This document shows positions 6,355 to 15,907 of a stretch of 15,907 nt of DNA, one piece after another (positions within the stretch are counted from its first letter, which is position 1; every line of letters begins with the position of its first letter). A program made the position numbers and the translations under genes. This DNA is from Escherichia coli (lineage in GTDB: Bacteria > Pseudomonadota > Gammaproteobacteria > Enterobacterales > Enterobacteriaceae), in assembly GCF_003334335.1 (NCBI RefSeq), contig NZ_QOWQ01000058.1. One strand, 5' to 3'. Under the pieces are notes generated by a model. That model was not told the origin of the DNA and did no database searches. It saw only the letters and a program-made list of their open reading frames with translations.

Positions 6355-6681
6355 TCATAACACCGTCGGACAACGCAAATCGTAAATCAGCACGGAAACA
6401 GAAAACGGCAGCTCCCCCTGAAGCAGTTCTTCCCGCTCCGCAAGATCCGGATTCCGGTACAGCATCCCGGTCAGTCGCATGGCAGCCCCCTTCATCCGGG
6501 TTAATGCCTCGCCCGGGATCAGTTCACCGTCCTCACGAATCACTTTATCCCGGCTGCCCTGAATGTAGGCCAGCAGCACGGCGGTAGCCTGACGAACCTT
6601 GTCCATCAGCATGTCATCATCCGCGTCATGGTCGACACGCAGATGTGCCTTGATCTCTTCCAGTGTCAGTAATGCCGTCAT
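6355..6681 (-). CDS. head-tail connector protein (gp6-like, Phage_connect_1 type)
   Basis: 108-aa ORF. The N-terminal LTLEEIKAHLRVDHDADDDML...A....Y is the classic gp6-like DNA-packaging/connector signature. Confidence 0.8.
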   Translation of the reverse strand: MTALLTLEEIKAHLRVDHDADDDMLMDKVRQATAVLLAYIQGSRDKVIREDGELIPGEALTRMKGAAMRLTGMLYRNPDLAEREELLQGELPFSVSVLIYDLRCPTVL

Positions 6682-7901
6682 TTTCCGCCTCCTGCATCCC
6701 GCCCACGTTTTGCAGCCAGGGTCCAGGCTGATGAATGAGCTTCTCCGGGTTTATCGCCGGTCATGCTGTTGCAGTGCCACAACGAGCCGCCCCACGTCAC
6801 TGTATCGCCGGGGTGGTAGATTTCACCGGCTCTGAACACACCGCGGTAGAGCATCACCGGCAGGGAAAATGTTTTTTCCGTACGCTGACCACTGCTCTGC
6901 AGGACCACCACAGAGAACAACCGCTCACCCGTCATGCTGACGTCAATATCCGCCACCCCGTCAACCAGGCATTCCCATCCCCGCATCCCGTGCGTTTTTT
7001 CATACGCCCGCCAGAGTCCGCCCTGGTGTGTGGCATACGTGCCCCGGGGAAAGGATTTTTGATCGTCAATGGCGGGGAGTATTTCCAGTGCCGTGGCATC
7101 ACGCCCGCCCTGCGGAGCCGGCAGGGCACTCACCGCATCCAGAACCGCCTTCTGCAGAACATCCGGATCGTAGTCACGACCGTCGCGCGGAACAGGAATA
7201 TGGCTTACCGCCTCCTTCACCATCTGCTCAAGCATCGGACGCACATCATCGGGAGTGATACTTTTACCGTTCGCCGGTACAGGAATATTTGCGACCGCAT
7301 CATTCACCGCCTTCTGCAATACTTCCGGATCGTAGTCACGACCATCACGCGGAACAGGGATATGACTTACCGCCTCCTTCACCATCTGTTCAAGCATCGG
7401 ACGCACATCATCCGGGGTGAGACTTTTACCGTCCGCTGGCTGCGGAATATTTGCGACCGCATCATTCACCGCCTTCTGCAGAACATCGGGATCATAGTCA
7501 CGACCGTCGCGCGGAACAGGGATATGGCTTACCGCCTCCTTCACCATCTGCTCAAGCATCGGACGCACATCATCGGGGGTAATACTTTTGCCGTCCGCCG
7601 GTACCGGAATATTCGCAACCGCATCATTCACCGCCTGCTTCAGTACTTCCGGATCGTAATCACGACCATCACGCGGTACCGGAATGGCCCCCACAGCGTC
7701 ATCCACCATCGCCTGCAGAACCAGACGCACCTCATCCACCGTCACATGCTTCTGTAATACCGCCGACAGGGAAGTCAGTTTCTCTTCAAACGCTTGTGCC
7801 TGCGAGGCCATCTTCCCCTCAAATGTGCGCTGTAAATCCGCCAGCACTGTGGAGAATTCTTCACCCAGCGCACGGATAATGGACAGTTCACGCTCTGTCA
7901 T
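6678..7901 (-). CDS. tandem-repeat virion-module protein with carbohydrate-binding-like C-terminus (function unknown; candidate head/neck fibre or decoration protein)
   Basis: 407-aa ORF with ATGA overlaps to the portal stop (7898-7901) and the connector start (6678-6681). It has a coiled-coil-like N-terminus, then 3.5 copies of a 54-aa unit. The C-terminal globular part ends IYHPGDTVTWGGSLWHCNSMTGDKPG...W. Confidence 0.85.
   Translation of the reverse strand: MTERELSIIRALGEEFSTVLADLQRTFEGKMASQAQAFEEKLTSLSAVLQKHVTVDEVRLVLQAMVDDAVGAIPVPRDGRDYDPEVLKQAVNDAVANIPVPADGKSITPDDVRPMLEQMVKEAVSHIPVPRDGRDYDPDVLQKAVNDAVANIPQPADGKSLTPDDVRPMLEQMVKEAVSHIPVPRDGRDYDPEVLQKAVNDAVANIPVPANGKSITPDDVRPMLEQMVKEAVSHIPVPRDGRDYDPDVLQKAVLDAVSALPAPQGGRDATALEILPAIDDQKSFPRGTYATHQGGLWRAYEKTHGMRGWECLVDGVADIDVSMTGERLFSVVVLQSSGQRTEKTFSLPVMLYRGVFRAGEIYHPGDTVTWGGSLWHCNSMTGDKPGEAHSSAWTLAAKRGRDAGGGK
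7125..7685 (-). repeat. in-frame 162-bp tandem repeat, ~3.5 copies (54-aa protein unit)
   Basis: The units IPVPRDGRDYDP(E/D)VL..AVNDAVAN plus IP(V/Q)PA(D/N)GKS(I/L)TPDDVRPMLEQMVKEAVSH repeat at aa 73-259. The DNA copies are clearly alignable by eye and differ mainly at synonymous positions. Confidence 0.95.
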
Positions 7902-9262
7902 TTTCGCAGTATCCCCCTGAACATCGCCTTCACCGCATCACGCTCTGTTTCGCTTATGGCCTTATTACCGTCAGACGCGCCCTCCTGGCGTGTGCCTGAC
8001 GACGTTTTCCCGGAAGACGCGAACGGATCCTCACGGGCATCACGACGGGACAGCGCCTCCAGACTGTAGTTCTGCTGCTGAAGATACAGTGCATCGCCTC
8101 CTGCCAGGGGCGGCAGATTCTCACGTTTACGGGCCTCATTGGGCGTGAGAAGCGTATTTTTCACCGCATCCCCCAGCGTTTTCATGCGACGTTCGCTGTC
8201 CATTCTCAGCAGCGTGGTGACGTCAAACTCCGTGCTCTCGTTTTCCCCTGTTTCCAGCGCCTCATCCAGTAACAGCTCAATGGACTCAATCAGCGTCTGC
8301 AGACACTGGGAATAATACTGCTGCTCCAGCGCCTCCACGTTGTCACTGGAAGGCGGTTGTCCCACACCAATCTTGTAGGCCGGGACACGGAACACCGAAC
8401 AGACAATTTCAGCCGTCATTTTCAGCTGTTCCACCGTCTGCGCATCCACCGGTGAAAACGTCGTGGGGTTATATTTCGCCCCGTTGCTCAGGATCGCCGT
8501 TTTCCCCGCATTTTCGCCGGTATACCCGCTGTCCCAGTTGCTCTTCAGTTTTTTCGCATTTTCTTCCGTTATACTGCCGGGGATCTCAATCACCCCGGAC
8601 GGCCTGCCGCCATTTCTGAAAAAAGACGTTGAATTTGCCTGAATATGATGCCCCTGCGTGGCAGCCAGCCCGGCAGCATACACCGGCGGCAGCCCCACAA
8701 GCGGATGAAAAAAACAGTTAAACCGGTCGTGGATCACTTCCCTGGCAGGCACCGTCACCGCCTCCGTGATCCCGCAGTTCCGGTCCGGTGTAATGCGATA
8801 GAACACCTCGCCGTCATCCGCCACCAGAGGTTCAACCCGGCTCCAGTCCAGAATACGCAGTTCTTTGATCTGCCCCCGGGAGTTACGGATTTTCAGCACC
8901 ACCGTATTGCCGTGACGCAGTTTGGCGTTCAGCCACAGTTCAAAAAACTGGATACGATTCTGCTGTGCATTGGGACGACGACAGAGACGGGCAATATCCC
9001 CCCGGCGCGTTTCCCTGCGTATCCCATGCGCATCCGTCTGCATAAGACGCAGCCGCATTTTGGCGATATCCTGGGATATCAGCGAAATACATGCAAACAC
9101 CGCATGAAAGGAGAGGACGGCTTCAGGATCGGCTTTCACGCCCTGCTGCCAGGCGCCGGAAAAGGGCTCAGCCACCGCCTGAAACAGGCTGGTCCAGCCC
9201 ACCTCTTTTACATCACGTCCTGATTTCTGGTTTTTTCGGGTTCGCCGCAAAAGGTTCCACAT
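7898..9262 (-). CDS. portal protein (HK97 family)
   Basis: 454-aa ORF with several features typical of Phage_portal (HK97-type) proteins: SF.AVFACISLISQDIAKM.L.L, RPN..Q....F.E.W...L..GN, FF.NGGRPSGV..., GENAGK.AIL..GAKY, DAQ..E...... and FRVP. Confidence 0.9.
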   Translation of the reverse strand: MWNLLRRTRKNQKSGRDVKEVGWTSLFQAVAEPFSGAWQQGVKADPEAVLSFHAVFACISLISQDIAKMRLRLMQTDAHGIRRETRRGDIARLCRRPNAQQNRIQFFELWLNAKLRHGNTVVLKIRNSRGQIKELRILDWSRVEPLVADDGEVFYRITPDRNCGITEAVTVPAREVIHDRFNCFFHPLVGLPPVYAAGLAATQGHHIQANSTSFFRNGGRPSGVIEIPGSITEENAKKLKSNWDSGYTGENAGKTAILSNGAKYNPTTFSPVDAQTVEQLKMTAEIVCSVFRVPAYKIGVGQPPSSDNVEALEQQYYSQCLQTLIESIELLLDEALETGENESTEFDVTTLLRMDSERRMKTLGDAVKNTLLTPNEARKRENLPPLAGGDALYLQQQNYSLEALSRRDAREDPFASSGKTSSGTRQEGASDGNKAISETERDAVKAMFRGILRK

Positions 9263-13136: not shown

Positions 13137-13696
13137 CCGTTGCCCTCATTATCGTTATTCACCACCAGTCGGGGTGGCGGTGGCACCGCAAAACGGTTAG
13201 CCGCTTTTTTCGCGGCATCACCTTTTGCCGATTTTTTCCCGGTATCCCCTTTTTTATGGTGCGTGAACTGCGCCAGACGCCAGGCCGCATCCAGTGCCAG
13301 TTTCGGATCAATGCAGAGGTTTTCCACCAGGATCCGCCCCATGGCTTTCACCGGATCGGGAAGACCATCCTCCATATATTCAATACCAGGAGACATCACC
13401 GCGGACGGTGGCATCTCCGGATTGTTTTCGTCCGGCTGTGGTATTGCAGCCGCCTCACGACGACGGGGTTTATCCTCCTGCTCTGATTTTTTCTGCCGGT
13501 AAACAGGAACCTCATCCACCTCCACCGTCTCGCATTGTTTACGGGCTATAAACGCAAGCACCTCCGGATCTTTTGCCAGCTGCGAGCCTTTAACCCTGGC
13601 GGTCTTCGCCGAATAACCGGCGGCAATGGCTGACGCTGTTTTGTTTTTCCCGGACATGAGCGCCAGCGCAAATTTTCGTTTTTGCGTTGTCAGCAC
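13133..13696 (-). CDS. terminase small subunit (Terminase_2-type N-terminal HTH)
   Basis: 187-aa ORF with a GTG start after GGAGGAGG. The N-terminus KRKFALALMSGKNKTASAIAAGYSAKTARVKGSQLAKDPEV matches the ...F...Y....N...AA..AGYS.KTA...GS.L pattern of Terminase_2 small subunits. It lies immediately upstream of terL. Confidence 0.85.
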   Translation of the reverse strand: MLTTQKRKFALALMSGKNKTASAIAAGYSAKTARVKGSQLAKDPEVLAFIARKQCETVEVDEVPVYRQKKSEQEDKPRRREAAAIPQPDENNPEMPPSAVMSPGIEYMEDGLPDPVKAMGRILVENLCIDPKLALDAAWRLAQFTHHKKGDTGKKSAKGDAAKKAANRFAVPPPPRLVVNNDNEGNG

Positions 13697-13770
13697 AGCC
13701 TCCTCCCGGGTCCAGAACGCACTCAGCCGGGTATGGTTCAGCCCATTTTTCCCGGCGTCTCATGCCGCAA

Positions 13771-13894
13771 ATGTTAACTGCTGCCTGGTTAACATTTTCT
13801 GAAAAAGCCAGTTAACATTTTTTCCGCACAACAAACTGAATAATAAAGATAAAAACCGCAAAAATGCCCGGGCAGCCAGTTAACATGTTAACTG
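13771..13894. promoter_or_regulatory. array of (CA)GTTAACAT sites in the HNH-terS intergenic region; probable terminase recognition (cosB-like) region
   Basis: ATGTTAACTG lies at 13771-13780 and GGTTAACAT at 13787-13795; these two form an inverted pair. GCCAGTTAACAT lies at 13807-13818. GCCAGTTAACATGTTAACTG at 13875-13894 contains a perfect 18-bp palindrome (13877-13894). An A/T-rich tract at 13831-13865 separates the site groups. Confidence 0.45.
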
Positions 13895-13986
13895 CCCTGA
13901 AACGGGAATTTTTTCTCTGCGTGAGAGGGGGCGCGGTGTCCAAAGCGATCGTTTTTTACGCCGGATGATACCCCCCCCGGGTTGGG

Positions 13987-14352
13987 TTACAGTCCGATGA
14001 TGTCGTCCTCTCTGCCACTACCTCCGGACACCTCCGGCAGCGTCGGGTCCGGCATACCACTCGCCGCTTCACGAGCAGACTTTTGTCGATGGCATTCGGC
14101 ACAGAGCGTCCAGAGATTCGTCTCCTCATTACCACCACCGAACTGAAGTGCAATTCGGTGATCGAGTTCACTGTCACAGAGGTCAACCACACGACCACAG
14201 ATACAGCACTGCCCGGCGTCCCTCAGCCAGATATGACGCTTGAGGGAAACACGTGCACTGCCACTGACACGACGCTGCTCCCCCTTCAGAATATTCACCC
14301 GTCGGGTATTCAGTGTTTTGATTCTGCTCTGGAGTGTACGAAGCTCAGCCAT
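13987..14352 (-). CDS. HNH endonuclease (terminase-associated, HK97 gp74-like position)
   Basis: 121-aa ORF with C.IC....-DH...-N-...C..CH (CCICGRVVDLCDSELDHRIALQFGGGNEETNLWTLCAECHRQK), i.e. an HNH/zinc-finger core. It lies just upstream of the intergenic region and terS, as in HNH-dependent cos phages. Confidence 0.9.
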   Translation of the reverse strand: MAELRTLQSRIKTLNTRRVNILKGEQRRVSGSARVSLKRHIWLRDAGQCCICGRVVDLCDSELDHRIALQFGGGNEETNLWTLCAECHRQKSAREAASGMPDPTLPEVSGGSGREDDIIGL

Positions 14353-14393
14353 GTAAAATCCCCGTCATATGGCAATCAGTAAAGGAAATAAAT

Positions 14394-14594
14394 ATGTCAT
14401 CGAAAAACCGGACCCGCAGAACCACAACCCGCAATATCCGTTTCCCCAATCACATAATTGAACAGATCAACATCGCCCTTGAGCATAAAGGGTCCGGTAA
14501 CTTTTCAGCGTGGGTTATTGAAGCCTGCAGGAGAAGGCTGGCAACAGATGCAACGCATCTGCGCCCGGCCAGCATGAAAAATAACGAGAAATGA
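14394..14594 (+). CDS. YlcI/YnfO-like small ribbon-helix-helix protein (DUF3950-type as I recall)
   Basis: ATG at 14394 is preceded by AAAGGAAATAAAT. The 66-aa product is MSSKNRTRRTTTRNIRFPNHIIEQINIALEHKGSGNFSAWVIEACRRRL.... It has a strand-helix-helix pattern like Arc/CopG and closely resembles my recollection of E. coli prophage YnfO/YlcI. It is the only convincing plus-strand gene. Confidence 0.75.
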   Translation: MSSKNRTRRTTTRNIRFPNHIIEQINIALEHKGSGNFSAWVIEACRRRLATDATHLRPASMKNNEK

Positions 14595-14725
14595 ACGTTC
14601 GGTTACAGGAGCAGGTACCCACTGTCCTCCAACAATATTTCATCTTCATATCCGACGGAACAAGACTTACCCTGCCGGGATGTACAGAATAACAACAGAG
14701 TGATAATTAATTTCTGATGAAATAA

Positions 14726-15058
14726 TCAGGGTGCAGAAGGACTAAAGATAAACGTTTTCTTCACGCCTTTACACGGCCTGTCCTTCTCAAATCGCCATTT
14801 TGCCATCGCCTTTACAACCTGCTCATCAAACAAATGGTGCGGCTCTGAACGGATAAACTCAATTCGGGTGACAGTACCATCAGCACCAATATCAAACTTC
14901 ACATCAACCCGTCCCTTTATATAATTTGCCGCTGCATAGGCCGGATATTGTGGTAATGCCTTAACCAACTGTCGGGGCATATCTGTTTTATGTTGCGTAC
15001 AGCCCATAACCAGAGAAGACAACAAAATAATTAACGGAAGATTTCTTTTCATTTTCAT
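14726..15058 (-). CDS. lipoprotein consisting of a TonB C-terminal domain (moron)
   Basis: The N-terminus MKMKRNLPLIILLSSLVMG|CTQHK has a signal peptide and lipobox with Cys+1 and Thr+2. The mature ~90 aa (LPQYPAYAAANYIKGRVDVKFDIGADGTVTRIEFIRSEPHHLFDEQVVKAMAKWRFEK) matches the TonB_C signature P.YP..A....I.G.V.V.F.I..DG.V......S.....FD..V..A...W.F. The gene is visibly more AT-rich than the flanking phage genes. I prefer the ATG at 15058 over the GTG at 15067. Confidence 0.85.
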   Translation of the reverse strand: MKMKRNLPLIILLSSLVMGCTQHKTDMPRQLVKALPQYPAYAAANYIKGRVDVKFDIGADGTVTRIEFIRSEPHHLFDEQVVKAMAKWRFEKDRPCKGVKKTFIFSPSAP

Positions 15059-15068
15059 TCCCGGCACA

Positions 15069-15093
15069 GATAAGAATAAGTCTTATTCTAACA
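15069..15093 (-). promoter_or_regulatory. candidate extended -10 promoter (TGTTAGAAT) overlapped by a Fur-box-like palindrome upstream of the TonB_C lipoprotein gene
   Basis: The minus strand reads TGTTAGAAT at 15093..15085. The plus strand reads GATAAGAATAAGTCTTATT at 15069-15087, matching 13/19 of the Fur consensus GATAATGATAATCATTATC. The core AGAATAAG-T-CTTATTCT (15073-15089) is a perfect 8+1+8 palindrome, and the ATG at 15058 lies ~11 nt beyond the box. Confidence 0.3.
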
Positions 15094-15396
15094 ATGCCAC
15101 CCTGTCGGTCATCAATCCTCTGCTTAATGGCAACGACAATTATCCGACTTAAATCACAAATCAGACACATGACATAACAGAGCTTGCGAGGTAACACATC
15201 GTCCGGTTTCTTCCACCATCGCACCGGACCAGCGACCATGAGGGGACAACGCCGCGCTCCGTTAACGCGGTAAACCCCGGTGTGTATCGTTTTTGATTAT
15301 CCCCGCACACTCTCGCAGAGGAGTCTCCCTGTCGGGCTGCGGTCTCTGTTAATGCAGGAATACGGCGACAATACCGCGCATGGATAATAAGGTCGC

Positions 15397-15621
15397 TCAA
15401 CACACTGGCTGTAATGCAGCGGATACCATGCGGCATTTAGCGGCATTCATCGTACTCTCAACGGTTAGCTCTTCATTCGTGGCATTCACCTGAAAGGTCC
15501 GGGAGTGTAATTGCGTACATTTACCACTGAACGAACCTTCAACAAGAACACGACCACGCTGCAAAATACGGAACGGAATTGTTCCCTGAAAAGGCTTTAC
15601 GGTTACCAGTAATTTCTTCAT
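15397..15621 (-). CDS. hypothetical 74-aa protein translationally coupled to Rz
   Basis: Its ATG overlaps the Rz stop (ATGA at 15618-15621). The product is MKKLLVTVKPFQGTIPFRILQRGRVLVEGSFSGKCTQLHSRTFQVNATNEELTVES.... It looks beta-rich, has no signal peptide or lipobox, and matches no family I recognise. The C-terminal ~18 aa look low-quality, so it may be a truncated gene. Confidence 0.45.
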   Translation of the reverse strand: MKKLLVTVKPFQGTIPFRILQRGRVLVEGSFSGKCTQLHSRTFQVNATNEELTVESTMNAAKCRMVSAALQPVC

Positions 15622-15907
15622 GCATTCTCCGGATAATAAAAAGCCAGCTTAGTGCACTGAGTGCGGATATATTCCTGCGCCCCTTCCAGCTGCTTCTGCA
15701 TTGTCATCAACCGTTCTCTGAGGATGAAATAATCCCGTTCAGCGGTGTCTGCCAGTCGGGGGCCGGTTGCATTATCCACGCCGGAGGTGCCGGTGGCTTC
15801 ACGCACGGTACCGGGGCAGGTGGCGTTGATCCGCAGGCGCTTACGACCAGCGGCAACGTCAGCGCGCAGAGTTTCATTTTCAGCTCTCGCATCGGCTAAT
15901 TCCCTCG
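15618..15907 (-). CDS. Rz: i-spanin Rz, C-terminal part (gene continues beyond the right edge)
   Basis: The frame is open from the window edge: RELADARAENETLRADVAAGRKRLRINATCPGTVREATGTSGVDNATGPRLADTAERDYFILRERLMTMQKQLEGAQEYIRTQC.... This is near-colinear with lambda Rz as I recall it (...AENDALRDDVAAGRRRL...REATTASGVDNAASPRLADTAERDYFTLRERLITMQKQLEG...). Confidence 0.9.
   Translation of the reverse strand, partial: RELADARAENETLRADVAAGRKRLRINATCPGTVREATGTSGVDNATGPRLADTAERDYFILRERLMTMQKQLEGAQEYIRTQCTKLAFYYPENA
15707..15892 (-). CDS. Rz1: o-spanin Rz1 lipoprotein, embedded in the +1 frame of Rz
   Basis: The product is MRELKMKLCALTLPLVVSA|CGSTPPAPVPCVKPPAPPAWIMQPAPDWQTPLNGIISSSENG. It has a lipobox (VSAC), a proline-rich mature part, and the lambda Rz1-like motif CVKPP.PPAWIMQP.PDWQTPLNGII. 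It lies entirely inside the Rz reading frame. Confidence 0.9.
   Translation of the reverse strand: MRELKMKLCALTLPLVVSACGSTPPAPVPCVKPPAPPAWIMQPAPDWQTPLNGIISSSENG

Follow-up and report, generated by a model that had tools for sequence, protein, structure and literature searches.

A small AT-rich moron of an Escherichia coli lambdoid prophage encodes the C-terminal domain of TonB as a predicted lipoprotein and possibly acts on TonB-dependent transporters

The window studied here, i.e. the whole stretch of 15,907 nucleotides (Escherichia coli, RefSeq assembly GCF_003334335.1, contig NZ_QOWQ01000058.1), is an E. coli lambdoid prophage. Its minus strand carried, in order, Rz/Rz1, a hypothetical gene, a gene for a TonB C-terminal domain (TonB_C) lipoprotein, HNH, terS, terL, capsid, portal and tail genes. 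The TonB_C gene, the subject of this work, lay in a minus-strand open reading frame (ORF) listed as spanning 14726-15067. Among its possible starts, ATG at 15052, with GGGA 6 nt upstream, was the most plausible and equalled the RefSeq start (WP_000828068.1, annotated as “TonB family protein” of 108 amino acids, aa); other candidate starts upstream were ATG at 15058 and GTG at 15067. The gene and its parts were as follows.

14607-15210, minus strand: AT-rich moron cassette of 604 bp, the sole gene of which is that of the TonB_C lipoprotein, preceded by 158 nt and followed by 119 nt
14726-15052, minus strand: coding sequence of the TonB_C lipoprotein, stop codon included; 108 aa, the same protein as WP_000828068.1
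15002-15052, minus strand: signal peptide MKRNLPLIILLSSLVMG, aa 1-17, read from the sequence as a positive N-region and then a hydrophobic core
14999-15010, minus strand: lipobox V-M-G-C, aa 15-18, with predicted lipidated Cys18 and Thr19 at +2
14741-14977, minus strand: TonB C-terminal domain, aa 26-104 (corresponding to residues 153-231 of E. coli TonB), with the YP motif, five conserved aromatics and the beta3 edge strand

The protein began with MKRNLPLIILLSSLVMG/CTQHKTDM, followed by the TonB C-terminal domain. A lipobox, LVMG/C, covered aa 14-18 (L-V-M-G-C), and the +2 position was occupied by Thr rather than by the Asp that serves as an inner-membrane retention signal. Cys18 was invariant in a 25-sequence family alignment, and a lipobox was found in 41 of 41 near-full-length unique homologues, with S, A, T or V at +2 and Asp in none. 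The lipoprotein is predicted to reside in the outer membrane. In an AlphaFold model built with 25 family sequences, the predicted local distance difference test score (pLDDT) was ~50 over the signal peptide, as expected of a cleaved leader, and above 95 over aa 28-104.

The domain was recognized by Pfam TonB_C (PF03544; E=1.3e-14, aa 36-93, 54.8 bits against a cut-off of 24.6) and by TIGR01352 (54.5 bits against 27.1). Residues 26-104 aligned without gaps to E. coli TonB 153-231 (structures 1u07, 2gsk_B and 2grx_C; E ~1e-16), and the same three structures, with the three-stranded sheet packed on helices that is typical of this domain, were the best Foldseek matches of the model (TM-score 0.88-0.91, root-mean-square deviation, rmsd, 1.1-1.4 A). 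Superposed on TonB bound to BtuB (2gsk_B), the model gave an rmsd of 1.1 A and a TM-score of 0.91, and on TonB bound to FhuA (2grx_C) an rmsd of 1.2 A; its beta3 edge strand was formed by aa 94-103. The NCBIfam equivalog models of TonB matched over the last ~80 positions only (49-74 bits against cut-offs of 265-448). The sole N-terminal hydrophobic segment was the lipoprotein signal peptide, the cytoplasmic-membrane anchor for coupling to ExbB/ExbD being absent; the proline-rich periplasmic spacer was absent too, and 7 residues (TQHKTDM) separated Cys18 from the start of the domain. Lacking both anchor and spacer, the lipoprotein cannot be an energy transducer. The sequence-only reading, which had seen a bare TonB C-terminal domain in lipoprotein form that could not work as TonB, was thus borne out in both respects.

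The same reading had called the gene a moron, more AT-rich than its surroundings, and this agreed with comparison to related phages. Phage vB_EcoS-569R3 shared the same backbone with near-identical flanks and in the alignment lacked exactly 14607-15210, indicating that the TonB_C gene is a moron, a self-contained cassette with clean edges between the lysis and the HNH/terminase genes. The cassette junctions carried a CGGTT(A/T)C microhomology. G+C content was 43.4% for the gene and 42.5% for the cassette, against 52% for the immediate flanks and 55-60% for the structural genes. Near-identical copies occurred in Shiga toxin 1a (Stx1a)-converting phages and in phages JLK-2012 and Lys8385Vzw, and the slot after Rz/Rz1 and before the terminase genes was used in four phage lineages with differing lysis and packaging modules. 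An 83-aa ORF annotated in JLK-2012 (14988-15239 in the window) overlaps the gene and spans the upstream non-coding region of the cassette.

A related subfamily, 72% identical, was found in phage 21, ev017, Perceval and PhiR phages. Its member in phage 21 is annotated as “TonB C-terminal domain protein” and those in ev017 and PhiR47_2 as [quoted passage not shown]. Between the window copy and its phage 21 orthologue, the ratio of non-synonymous to synonymous substitution rates (dN/dS) was 0.12 at a dS of ~1.5, indicating a working gene, so labels such as “TonB fragment” or “partial” are misleading. The window type was present in 417 of 5426 complete E. coli genomes (8%) and the phage 21 type in 1225 of them (23%). 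An exhaustive HMMER search with follow-ups retrieved many proteins of ~110 aa, 34-49% identical and of the same architecture; the resulting family set comprised 94 loci and 42 unique proteins, 41 of them of near-full length. With a narrower family alignment as query, 8 genome loci were obtained, mostly from Pantoea and Erwinia. Named sources of the family included Pantoea, Erwinia, Rahnella and Sodalis, and some lineages were single chromosomal genes in non-phage surroundings (e.g. next to ahpCF, next to an acetyltransferase gene, or among metabolic genes in Pantoea agglomerans). Since copies reside in such non-phage chromosomal contexts, the function is not intrinsically anti-phage. Conserved in the family was a signature unlike that of true TonB (YPxYA, SEP/STP, HLFD and KWRFE).

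Two observations on relatives may be added. Many of the best remote matches (P0034, P0036, P0043 and others) were proteins of 370-670 aa in which the TonB_C domain is repeated in tandem, three to five times. In phage 21 (L012, 2227-2520) the TonB_C gene lay ~480 bp from bor and on the opposite strand, so that two outer-membrane lipoprotein morons share one hot spot between Rz and cos.

Upstream of the gene the following elements were distinguished.

15085-15093, minus strand: extended -10-like element TGTTAGAAT, from a promoter scan, 9/12 with TG
15107-15112, minus strand: -35-like ATGACC, 16 nt upstream of TGTTAGAAT
15073-15089, no strand assigned: perfect palindrome (8-1-8), AGAATAAG-T-CTTATTCT; overlaps the -10 and also the predicted start of transcription
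15069-15087, no strand assigned: Fur-box-like 19-mer GATAAGAATAAGTCTTATT, 13/19 of the consensus, 8.3 bits
15038-15056, no strand assigned: second Fur-like 19-mer GAAAATGAAAAGAAATCTT (minus), 12.6 bits, spanning the start codon; the best match in the window to a position weight matrix (PWM)

The palindrome that the sequence-only reading had pointed out was real: it was one of two distinct perfect palindromes of its size in the window, and P was ~0.003 for a perfect palindrome within 60 nt of a start codon. As RNA it folded at -4.1 kcal/mol only. It was conserved in an 88%-identical variant (P0003), degenerate in P0009 and half-deleted in phage 21. The extended -10 that had been proposed was present, but the match was not significant on its own, since the scan gave 2 such sites in 1.4 kb against 2.0 expected and shuffled sequences gave as many. 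TGTTAG[T/A]AT was kept in the 44%-identical P0035 phage lineage, and TGTCAGAAT was found in phage 21. Among homologues of the phage 21 type, LF82_160 (“TonB fragment”) of prophage Perceval is listed as a moron and was transcribed 8-fold above the prophage background in an uninduced LF82 lysogen in LB (PMC9928086). The evidence for a promoter of its own thus comprised a chance-level site in the window, a -10 kept in distant homologues and transcription of a 72%-identical homologue in a lysogen.

The suggested link of this promoter to Fur gained more support than the sequence-only reading could give it, although not from the window by itself: the 13/19 site was there but weak, and strong boxes were found across the family. 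The window had five 13/19 matches, of which three fell in the AT-rich stretch, and the P for one such site in 200 AT-rich bases was ~0.05 by consensus count and ~0.11 by PWM. The PWM was built on nine genuinely Fur-regulated intergenic regions of strain MG1655 (fepA-fes, fepD-entS, fepB-entC, fhuA, tonB, exbB, cirA, fiu and fecI), whose best consensus matches were 12-16/19 and whose leave-one-out PWM scores were 7.4-17.7 bits. With genuine Fur promoters reaching only 12-16/19 and five 13/19 matches present in the window, the count is no argument for or against the site, and consensus counting was replaced by the PWM and a comparative test. The second Fur-like site lay 12 nt from the first, and 0.5% of control start-codon regions scored as high; its score may reflect Lys codons or one half of a two-site array.

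For the comparative test, lineages were defined as clusters at 62% identity, and a box was counted if its score was 13 bits or more and it lay no further than 100 nt from the start. Such boxes occurred at the homologous position in 9 of 11 lineages, both phage and chromosomal, lying 10-46 nt before the start codon and overlapping the -10 element:

19.0 bits: P0035-type phage (L042)
18.5 bits: Pantoea chromosome (L026)
18.3 bits: “MLKFL” phage lineage (L045, L048)
18.1 bits: chromosomal P0040 (L006)
16.6 bits: chromosomal P0046 (L009)
16.0 bits: P0037 (L005)
14.3 bits: Pantoea lineage (L032, L033)
13.7 bits: Klebsiella-phage lineage (L070)
13.0 bits: Erwinia/Pantoea lineage (L029)

Scores of at least 13 bits had a background of 1 in 820 windows and of 0 in 99 control upstream regions, giving a nominal binomial P of ~3e-25 for lineages that are not fully independent. 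Retention of the box across such divergence argues for selection. The promoter of the P0035 type is CTGTTAGTATTGATAATTATTATC, to which MAFFT aligned TTGTTAGAATAAGACTTATTCTTATC of the window, indicating that the window palindrome is the positional descendant of a Fur box. The phage 21 subfamily kept TGTCAGAATAAGAC, lacked the second palindrome arm (14 bases in the alignment) and had no Fur-like site. From these alignments, Fur control was probably ancestral to the family, became degenerate and uncertain in the window lineage and was lost in phage 21; any Fur control of the window copy is putative. LB is an iron-replete medium, and transcription of the Perceval gene in it fits loss of Fur control in the phage 21 type. 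In a Pantoea agglomerans member (P0195; L017/L018, 7001-7399) the annotated start, giving 132 aa, is probably wrong: a strong Fur box and TATAAT lie within the annotated N-terminal extension, and an internal Met gives a normal lipoprotein of 108 aa.

Experiments on TonB itself offer a precedent for what such a protein might do. According to PMC9841981, iron import via TonB-dependent transporters is inhibited when a periplasmic TonB domain is overexpressed (Howard et al. 2001, J Bacteriol 183:5885), and a Ton-box pentapeptide lowers both phi80 infection and killing by colicins that act through TonB (Tuckman and Osburne 1992). As the most likely of the explanations considered, yet with a likelihood that we put just short of even, we propose that the lipoprotein is an outer-membrane-tethered mimic of TonB which would sit on Ton boxes and thereby dampen the entry of phages and bacteriocins that depend on TonB. 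The tether of ~7 residues would hold the domain at the periplasmic rim of TonB-dependent transporters (FhuA, FepA, Cir, Fiu, BtuB and others), where it would bind Ton boxes by beta-strand pairing on the beta3 edge, in the manner of TonB. Without a link to ExbBD, it would compete with TonB instead of energising transport; it could not pull, and TonB-dependent import would fall. The lysogen would better tolerate agents that depend on TonB, for example T1/phi80-type phages, group B colicins, catecholate microcins or sideromycins. For the family at large, the Fur-repressed promoter would have the protein made just when iron starvation derepresses the receptors. Ton-box binding, competition with TonB and the protective phenotype are what we infer.

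The J C-terminus of the carrier JLK-2012 was 50-53% identical to that of lambda/434 and 68-69% identical to those of phage 21-type carriers, and by this resemblance the carrier phages probably use porins. With a lambda/434-like J tip, exclusion would target other phages or toxins and not the phage's own receptor; blocking of the own receptor in the manner of Llp was judged unlikely on the same ground.

Applied to the family as a whole, the proposal would make a widespread and so far unrecognised set of Fur-controlled, outer-membrane-tethered TonB mimics, present on chromosomes of Enterobacterales and in prophages, general gatekeepers of all TonB-dependent transporters, an idea that we regard as possible, with the chances leaning somewhat against it. 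One small protein, switched on at iron starvation, would then guard against TonB-dependent phages, colicins, microcins and sideromycins via the shared Ton box.

Several points weigh against a TonB decoy. Fur-repressed genes usually promote iron acquisition, and the Fur boxes that precede chromosomal copies point to a physiological role under iron starvation, a state in which an inhibitor of iron uptake looks costly. TonB Q160 and R166, reportedly receptor-interface residues according to the 2006 papers on the complexes, are replaced here by Leu33 and Tyr39, and Tyr39 is nearly invariant in the family. Transporters far outnumber TonB, and a decoy may need a high copy number. The published dominant-negative effects of the TonB domain, as they are presented in PMC9841981, needed overexpression. 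The Fur-like site of the window is weak by itself (8.3 bits, P ~0.1). No defence-system model of PADLOC matched the lipoprotein, and a literature search returned no functional study of a phage or lipoprotein TonB_C protein and no experiment on a family member. As the gene lies on the strand of the late operon, it is also transcribed during lytic growth, so that a late lytic role is possible, and no intrinsic terminator or terminator-like site was found between its stop codon (14726) and the convergent ynfO.

Some of these points would be accommodated if the lipoprotein were a positive or tuning accessory of TonB-dependent uptake and not an inhibitor, i.e. an iron-fitness gene of the prophage like sitABCD of Perceval, a serious alternative although we consider it on the whole unlikely. 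Family-wide Fur boxes, including those of non-phage chromosomal copies, are the usual signature of iron acquisition, and Perceval carries iron and manganese uptake morons, e.g. sitABCD, beside its TonB_C copy (PMC9928086). Such an accessory might, under iron starvation, hold or shield the Ton boxes of unloaded transporters, so that TonB, which is scarce, is focused on loaded ones or released after a cycle. However, we know of no mechanism by which a TonB domain without a link to ExbBD would help transport. Moreover, the sole experimental precedent for a periplasmic TonB domain, in the account given in PMC9841981, is inhibitory. The accessory and the decoy are not separated by the present data. 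It is improbable, in our view, that the TonB-like fold has been re-used for another partner (peptidoglycan, an envelope protein or ExbD) with a role in envelope stability or virulence. The family signature differing from true TonB speaks for such re-use, the divergent residues at the Q160 and R166 positions make a different partner possible, and proteins of the TonB/TolA fold bind different partners (ferredoxin in the case of FusB, phage g3p in that of TolA; both structures were among the Foldseek results). The lambdoid moron bor confers serum resistance, and the same hot spot in phage 21 holds bor. On the other hand, the Fur boxes link the lipoprotein to iron/TonB physiology, and in sequence and structure it is nearest to enterobacterial TonB, not to TolA or FusB.

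A late lytic function, either spanin-like or an Llp-like inactivation of the phage's own receptor that spares progeny from cell debris, appears very improbable. In its favour, the gene directly follows the lysis genes and shares its strand with Rz/Rz1 and the terminase genes, and PHROG 1267 (“Rz-like spanin”, lysis category) matched the lipoprotein end to end (E=6e-43). This label is very probably an annotation error, arising because the gene adjoins lysis genes and has a lipobox: the protein is a globular TonB domain without spanin features, neither an i-spanin (anchor and coiled coil) nor an o-spanin (Pro-rich lipoprotein nested in Rz). The window also has a separate Rz1-type ORF of its own (15707-15892; the equivalent gene of L105 has Pfam Rz1), close phage relatives do without the cassette, the homologue is transcribed in uninduced lysogens (PMC9928086), and the J tip makes the receptor probably a porin and not a TonB-dependent transporter. 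That the gene is a decaying, functionless fragment of a captured tonB is hardly credible, although several records carry the labels “TonB fragment” or “partial tonB-like membrane protein” and some database members of the family are truncated or frameshifted. The dN/dS of 0.12 across saturated synonymous divergence and the signal peptide and lipobox, acquired and kept in every family member, effectively refute it; the conserved regulatory box and the occurrence of the two types in 417 and 1225 complete E. coli genomes also speak against it.

Further features were noted around the cassette. The YlcI/YnfO (DUF3950) gene (14394-14594) points towards the cassette from the plus strand, on which no other gene lies in this portion of the late region, and phages without the cassette retain it. 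Just upstream of the cassette, block 15211-15400 looks non-coding, was 97-98% identical in more than 100 Stx-converting phages without the TonB_C gene, was better conserved with phage 21 than the TonB_C gene is, and contains a conserved hairpin, CCGCG-N9-CGCGG, at 15252-15270. An Rfam search of 13600-15907 gave no match at E<=1; neither the palindrome nor the conserved block upstream is thus a known RNA element. The second perfect palindrome of this size in the window, CAGTTAACATGTTAACTG (13877-13894), occupies the intergenic region that separates terS from the HNH endonuclease gene, the expected place of an HK97-like cos site or of a recognition site for terminase. Two overlapping ORFs, of 407 aa (6678-7901) and 454 aa (7898-9262), make up the split portal region; in a 99.8%-identical prophage the portal gene is flagged in RefSeq as frameshifted, two coding sequences of JLK-2012 are annotated as “portal protein”, and the split is either a real defect or a programmed feature.

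The gene had already been annotated, and one homologue had already been listed as a moron, so its existence is not new. What appears to be newly recognized is that lipoprotein TonB mimics form one coherent family sharing a conserved Fur box. The decoy hypothesis, too, appears to be new; no natural example of a lipoprotein TonB decoy seems to have been described in the literature, while a laboratory precedent exists. The gene occurs in Stx1a-converting phages and in the classical phage 21 and is common in E. coli, so any phenotype would be widely relevant, and the family-wide Fur box yields a definite prediction on regulation, one that could be tested cheaply. If the protein is a decoy, a single 10-kDa protein would shut every TonB-dependent gate, a broad-spectrum device for prophages and some bacteria. 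This would bear on host range in phage therapy (T1-like, phi80-like and other TonB-dependent phages), on the ecology of colicins and microcins in the gut, and on susceptibility to siderophore-conjugated antibiotics (cefiderocol-type) and albomycin, the uptake of which needs TonB. A gatekeeper of all these transporters would work on a principle unlike that of the receptor-specific blockers Cor and Llp; should the accessory explanation be the true one, an unknown component of TonB-dependent transport would be revealed.

Among known systems, Cor of phages phi80, N15 and HK022 is a phage outer-membrane lipoprotein that acts on a TonB-dependent transporter from the periplasmic side. Llp of phage T5 is likewise a small phage lipoprotein, located in the inner leaflet of the outer membrane, that acts on such a transporter from the periplasmic side (bioRxiv 10.64898/2026.03.26.714494). 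The window protein resembles both in being a small phage-encoded lipoprotein with a predicted location at the periplasmic side of TonB-dependent transporters. It differs from them in that they are specific for FhuA, the receptor of the encoding phage, whereas its target would be the Ton box, which all such transporters share, and in that carriers of the window type appear to use porins. In Pfam and PHROG scans it had no sequence relation to Cor or Llp: Pfam matched only TonB_C and TonB_2, and none of the PHROG matches (1267, 34172, 812, 29243 and 5155) carried an exclusion-protein annotation. Lambda Bor and Lom are similar in being outer-membrane proteins expressed by the lysogen from the same region after Rz and before the packaging genes; their fold is unrelated, and bor is on the opposite strand, unlike the TonB_C gene on the strand of the late operon. 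With TonB itself (P02929, 153-235) the lipoprotein shares the domain and fold in a gap-free alignment at ~37-42% identity, keeping Y163/P164 and all of the aromatics F180, F202, W213, Y215 and F230. However, TonB has an N-terminal anchor, a Pro-rich rod and a link to ExbBD, in place of which the lipoprotein has a predicted outer-membrane lipid anchor, and it ends a few residues past beta3. Comparable to the proposed decoy are the periplasmic TonB C-terminal fragments, in which, as presented in PMC9841981, the receptor-binding domain is likewise uncoupled from its energy source in the periplasm. Those fragments are soluble, overexpressed laboratory constructs, whereas the lipoprotein is natural, predicted to be lipid-anchored, under purifying selection and carried by prophages and some chromosomes.

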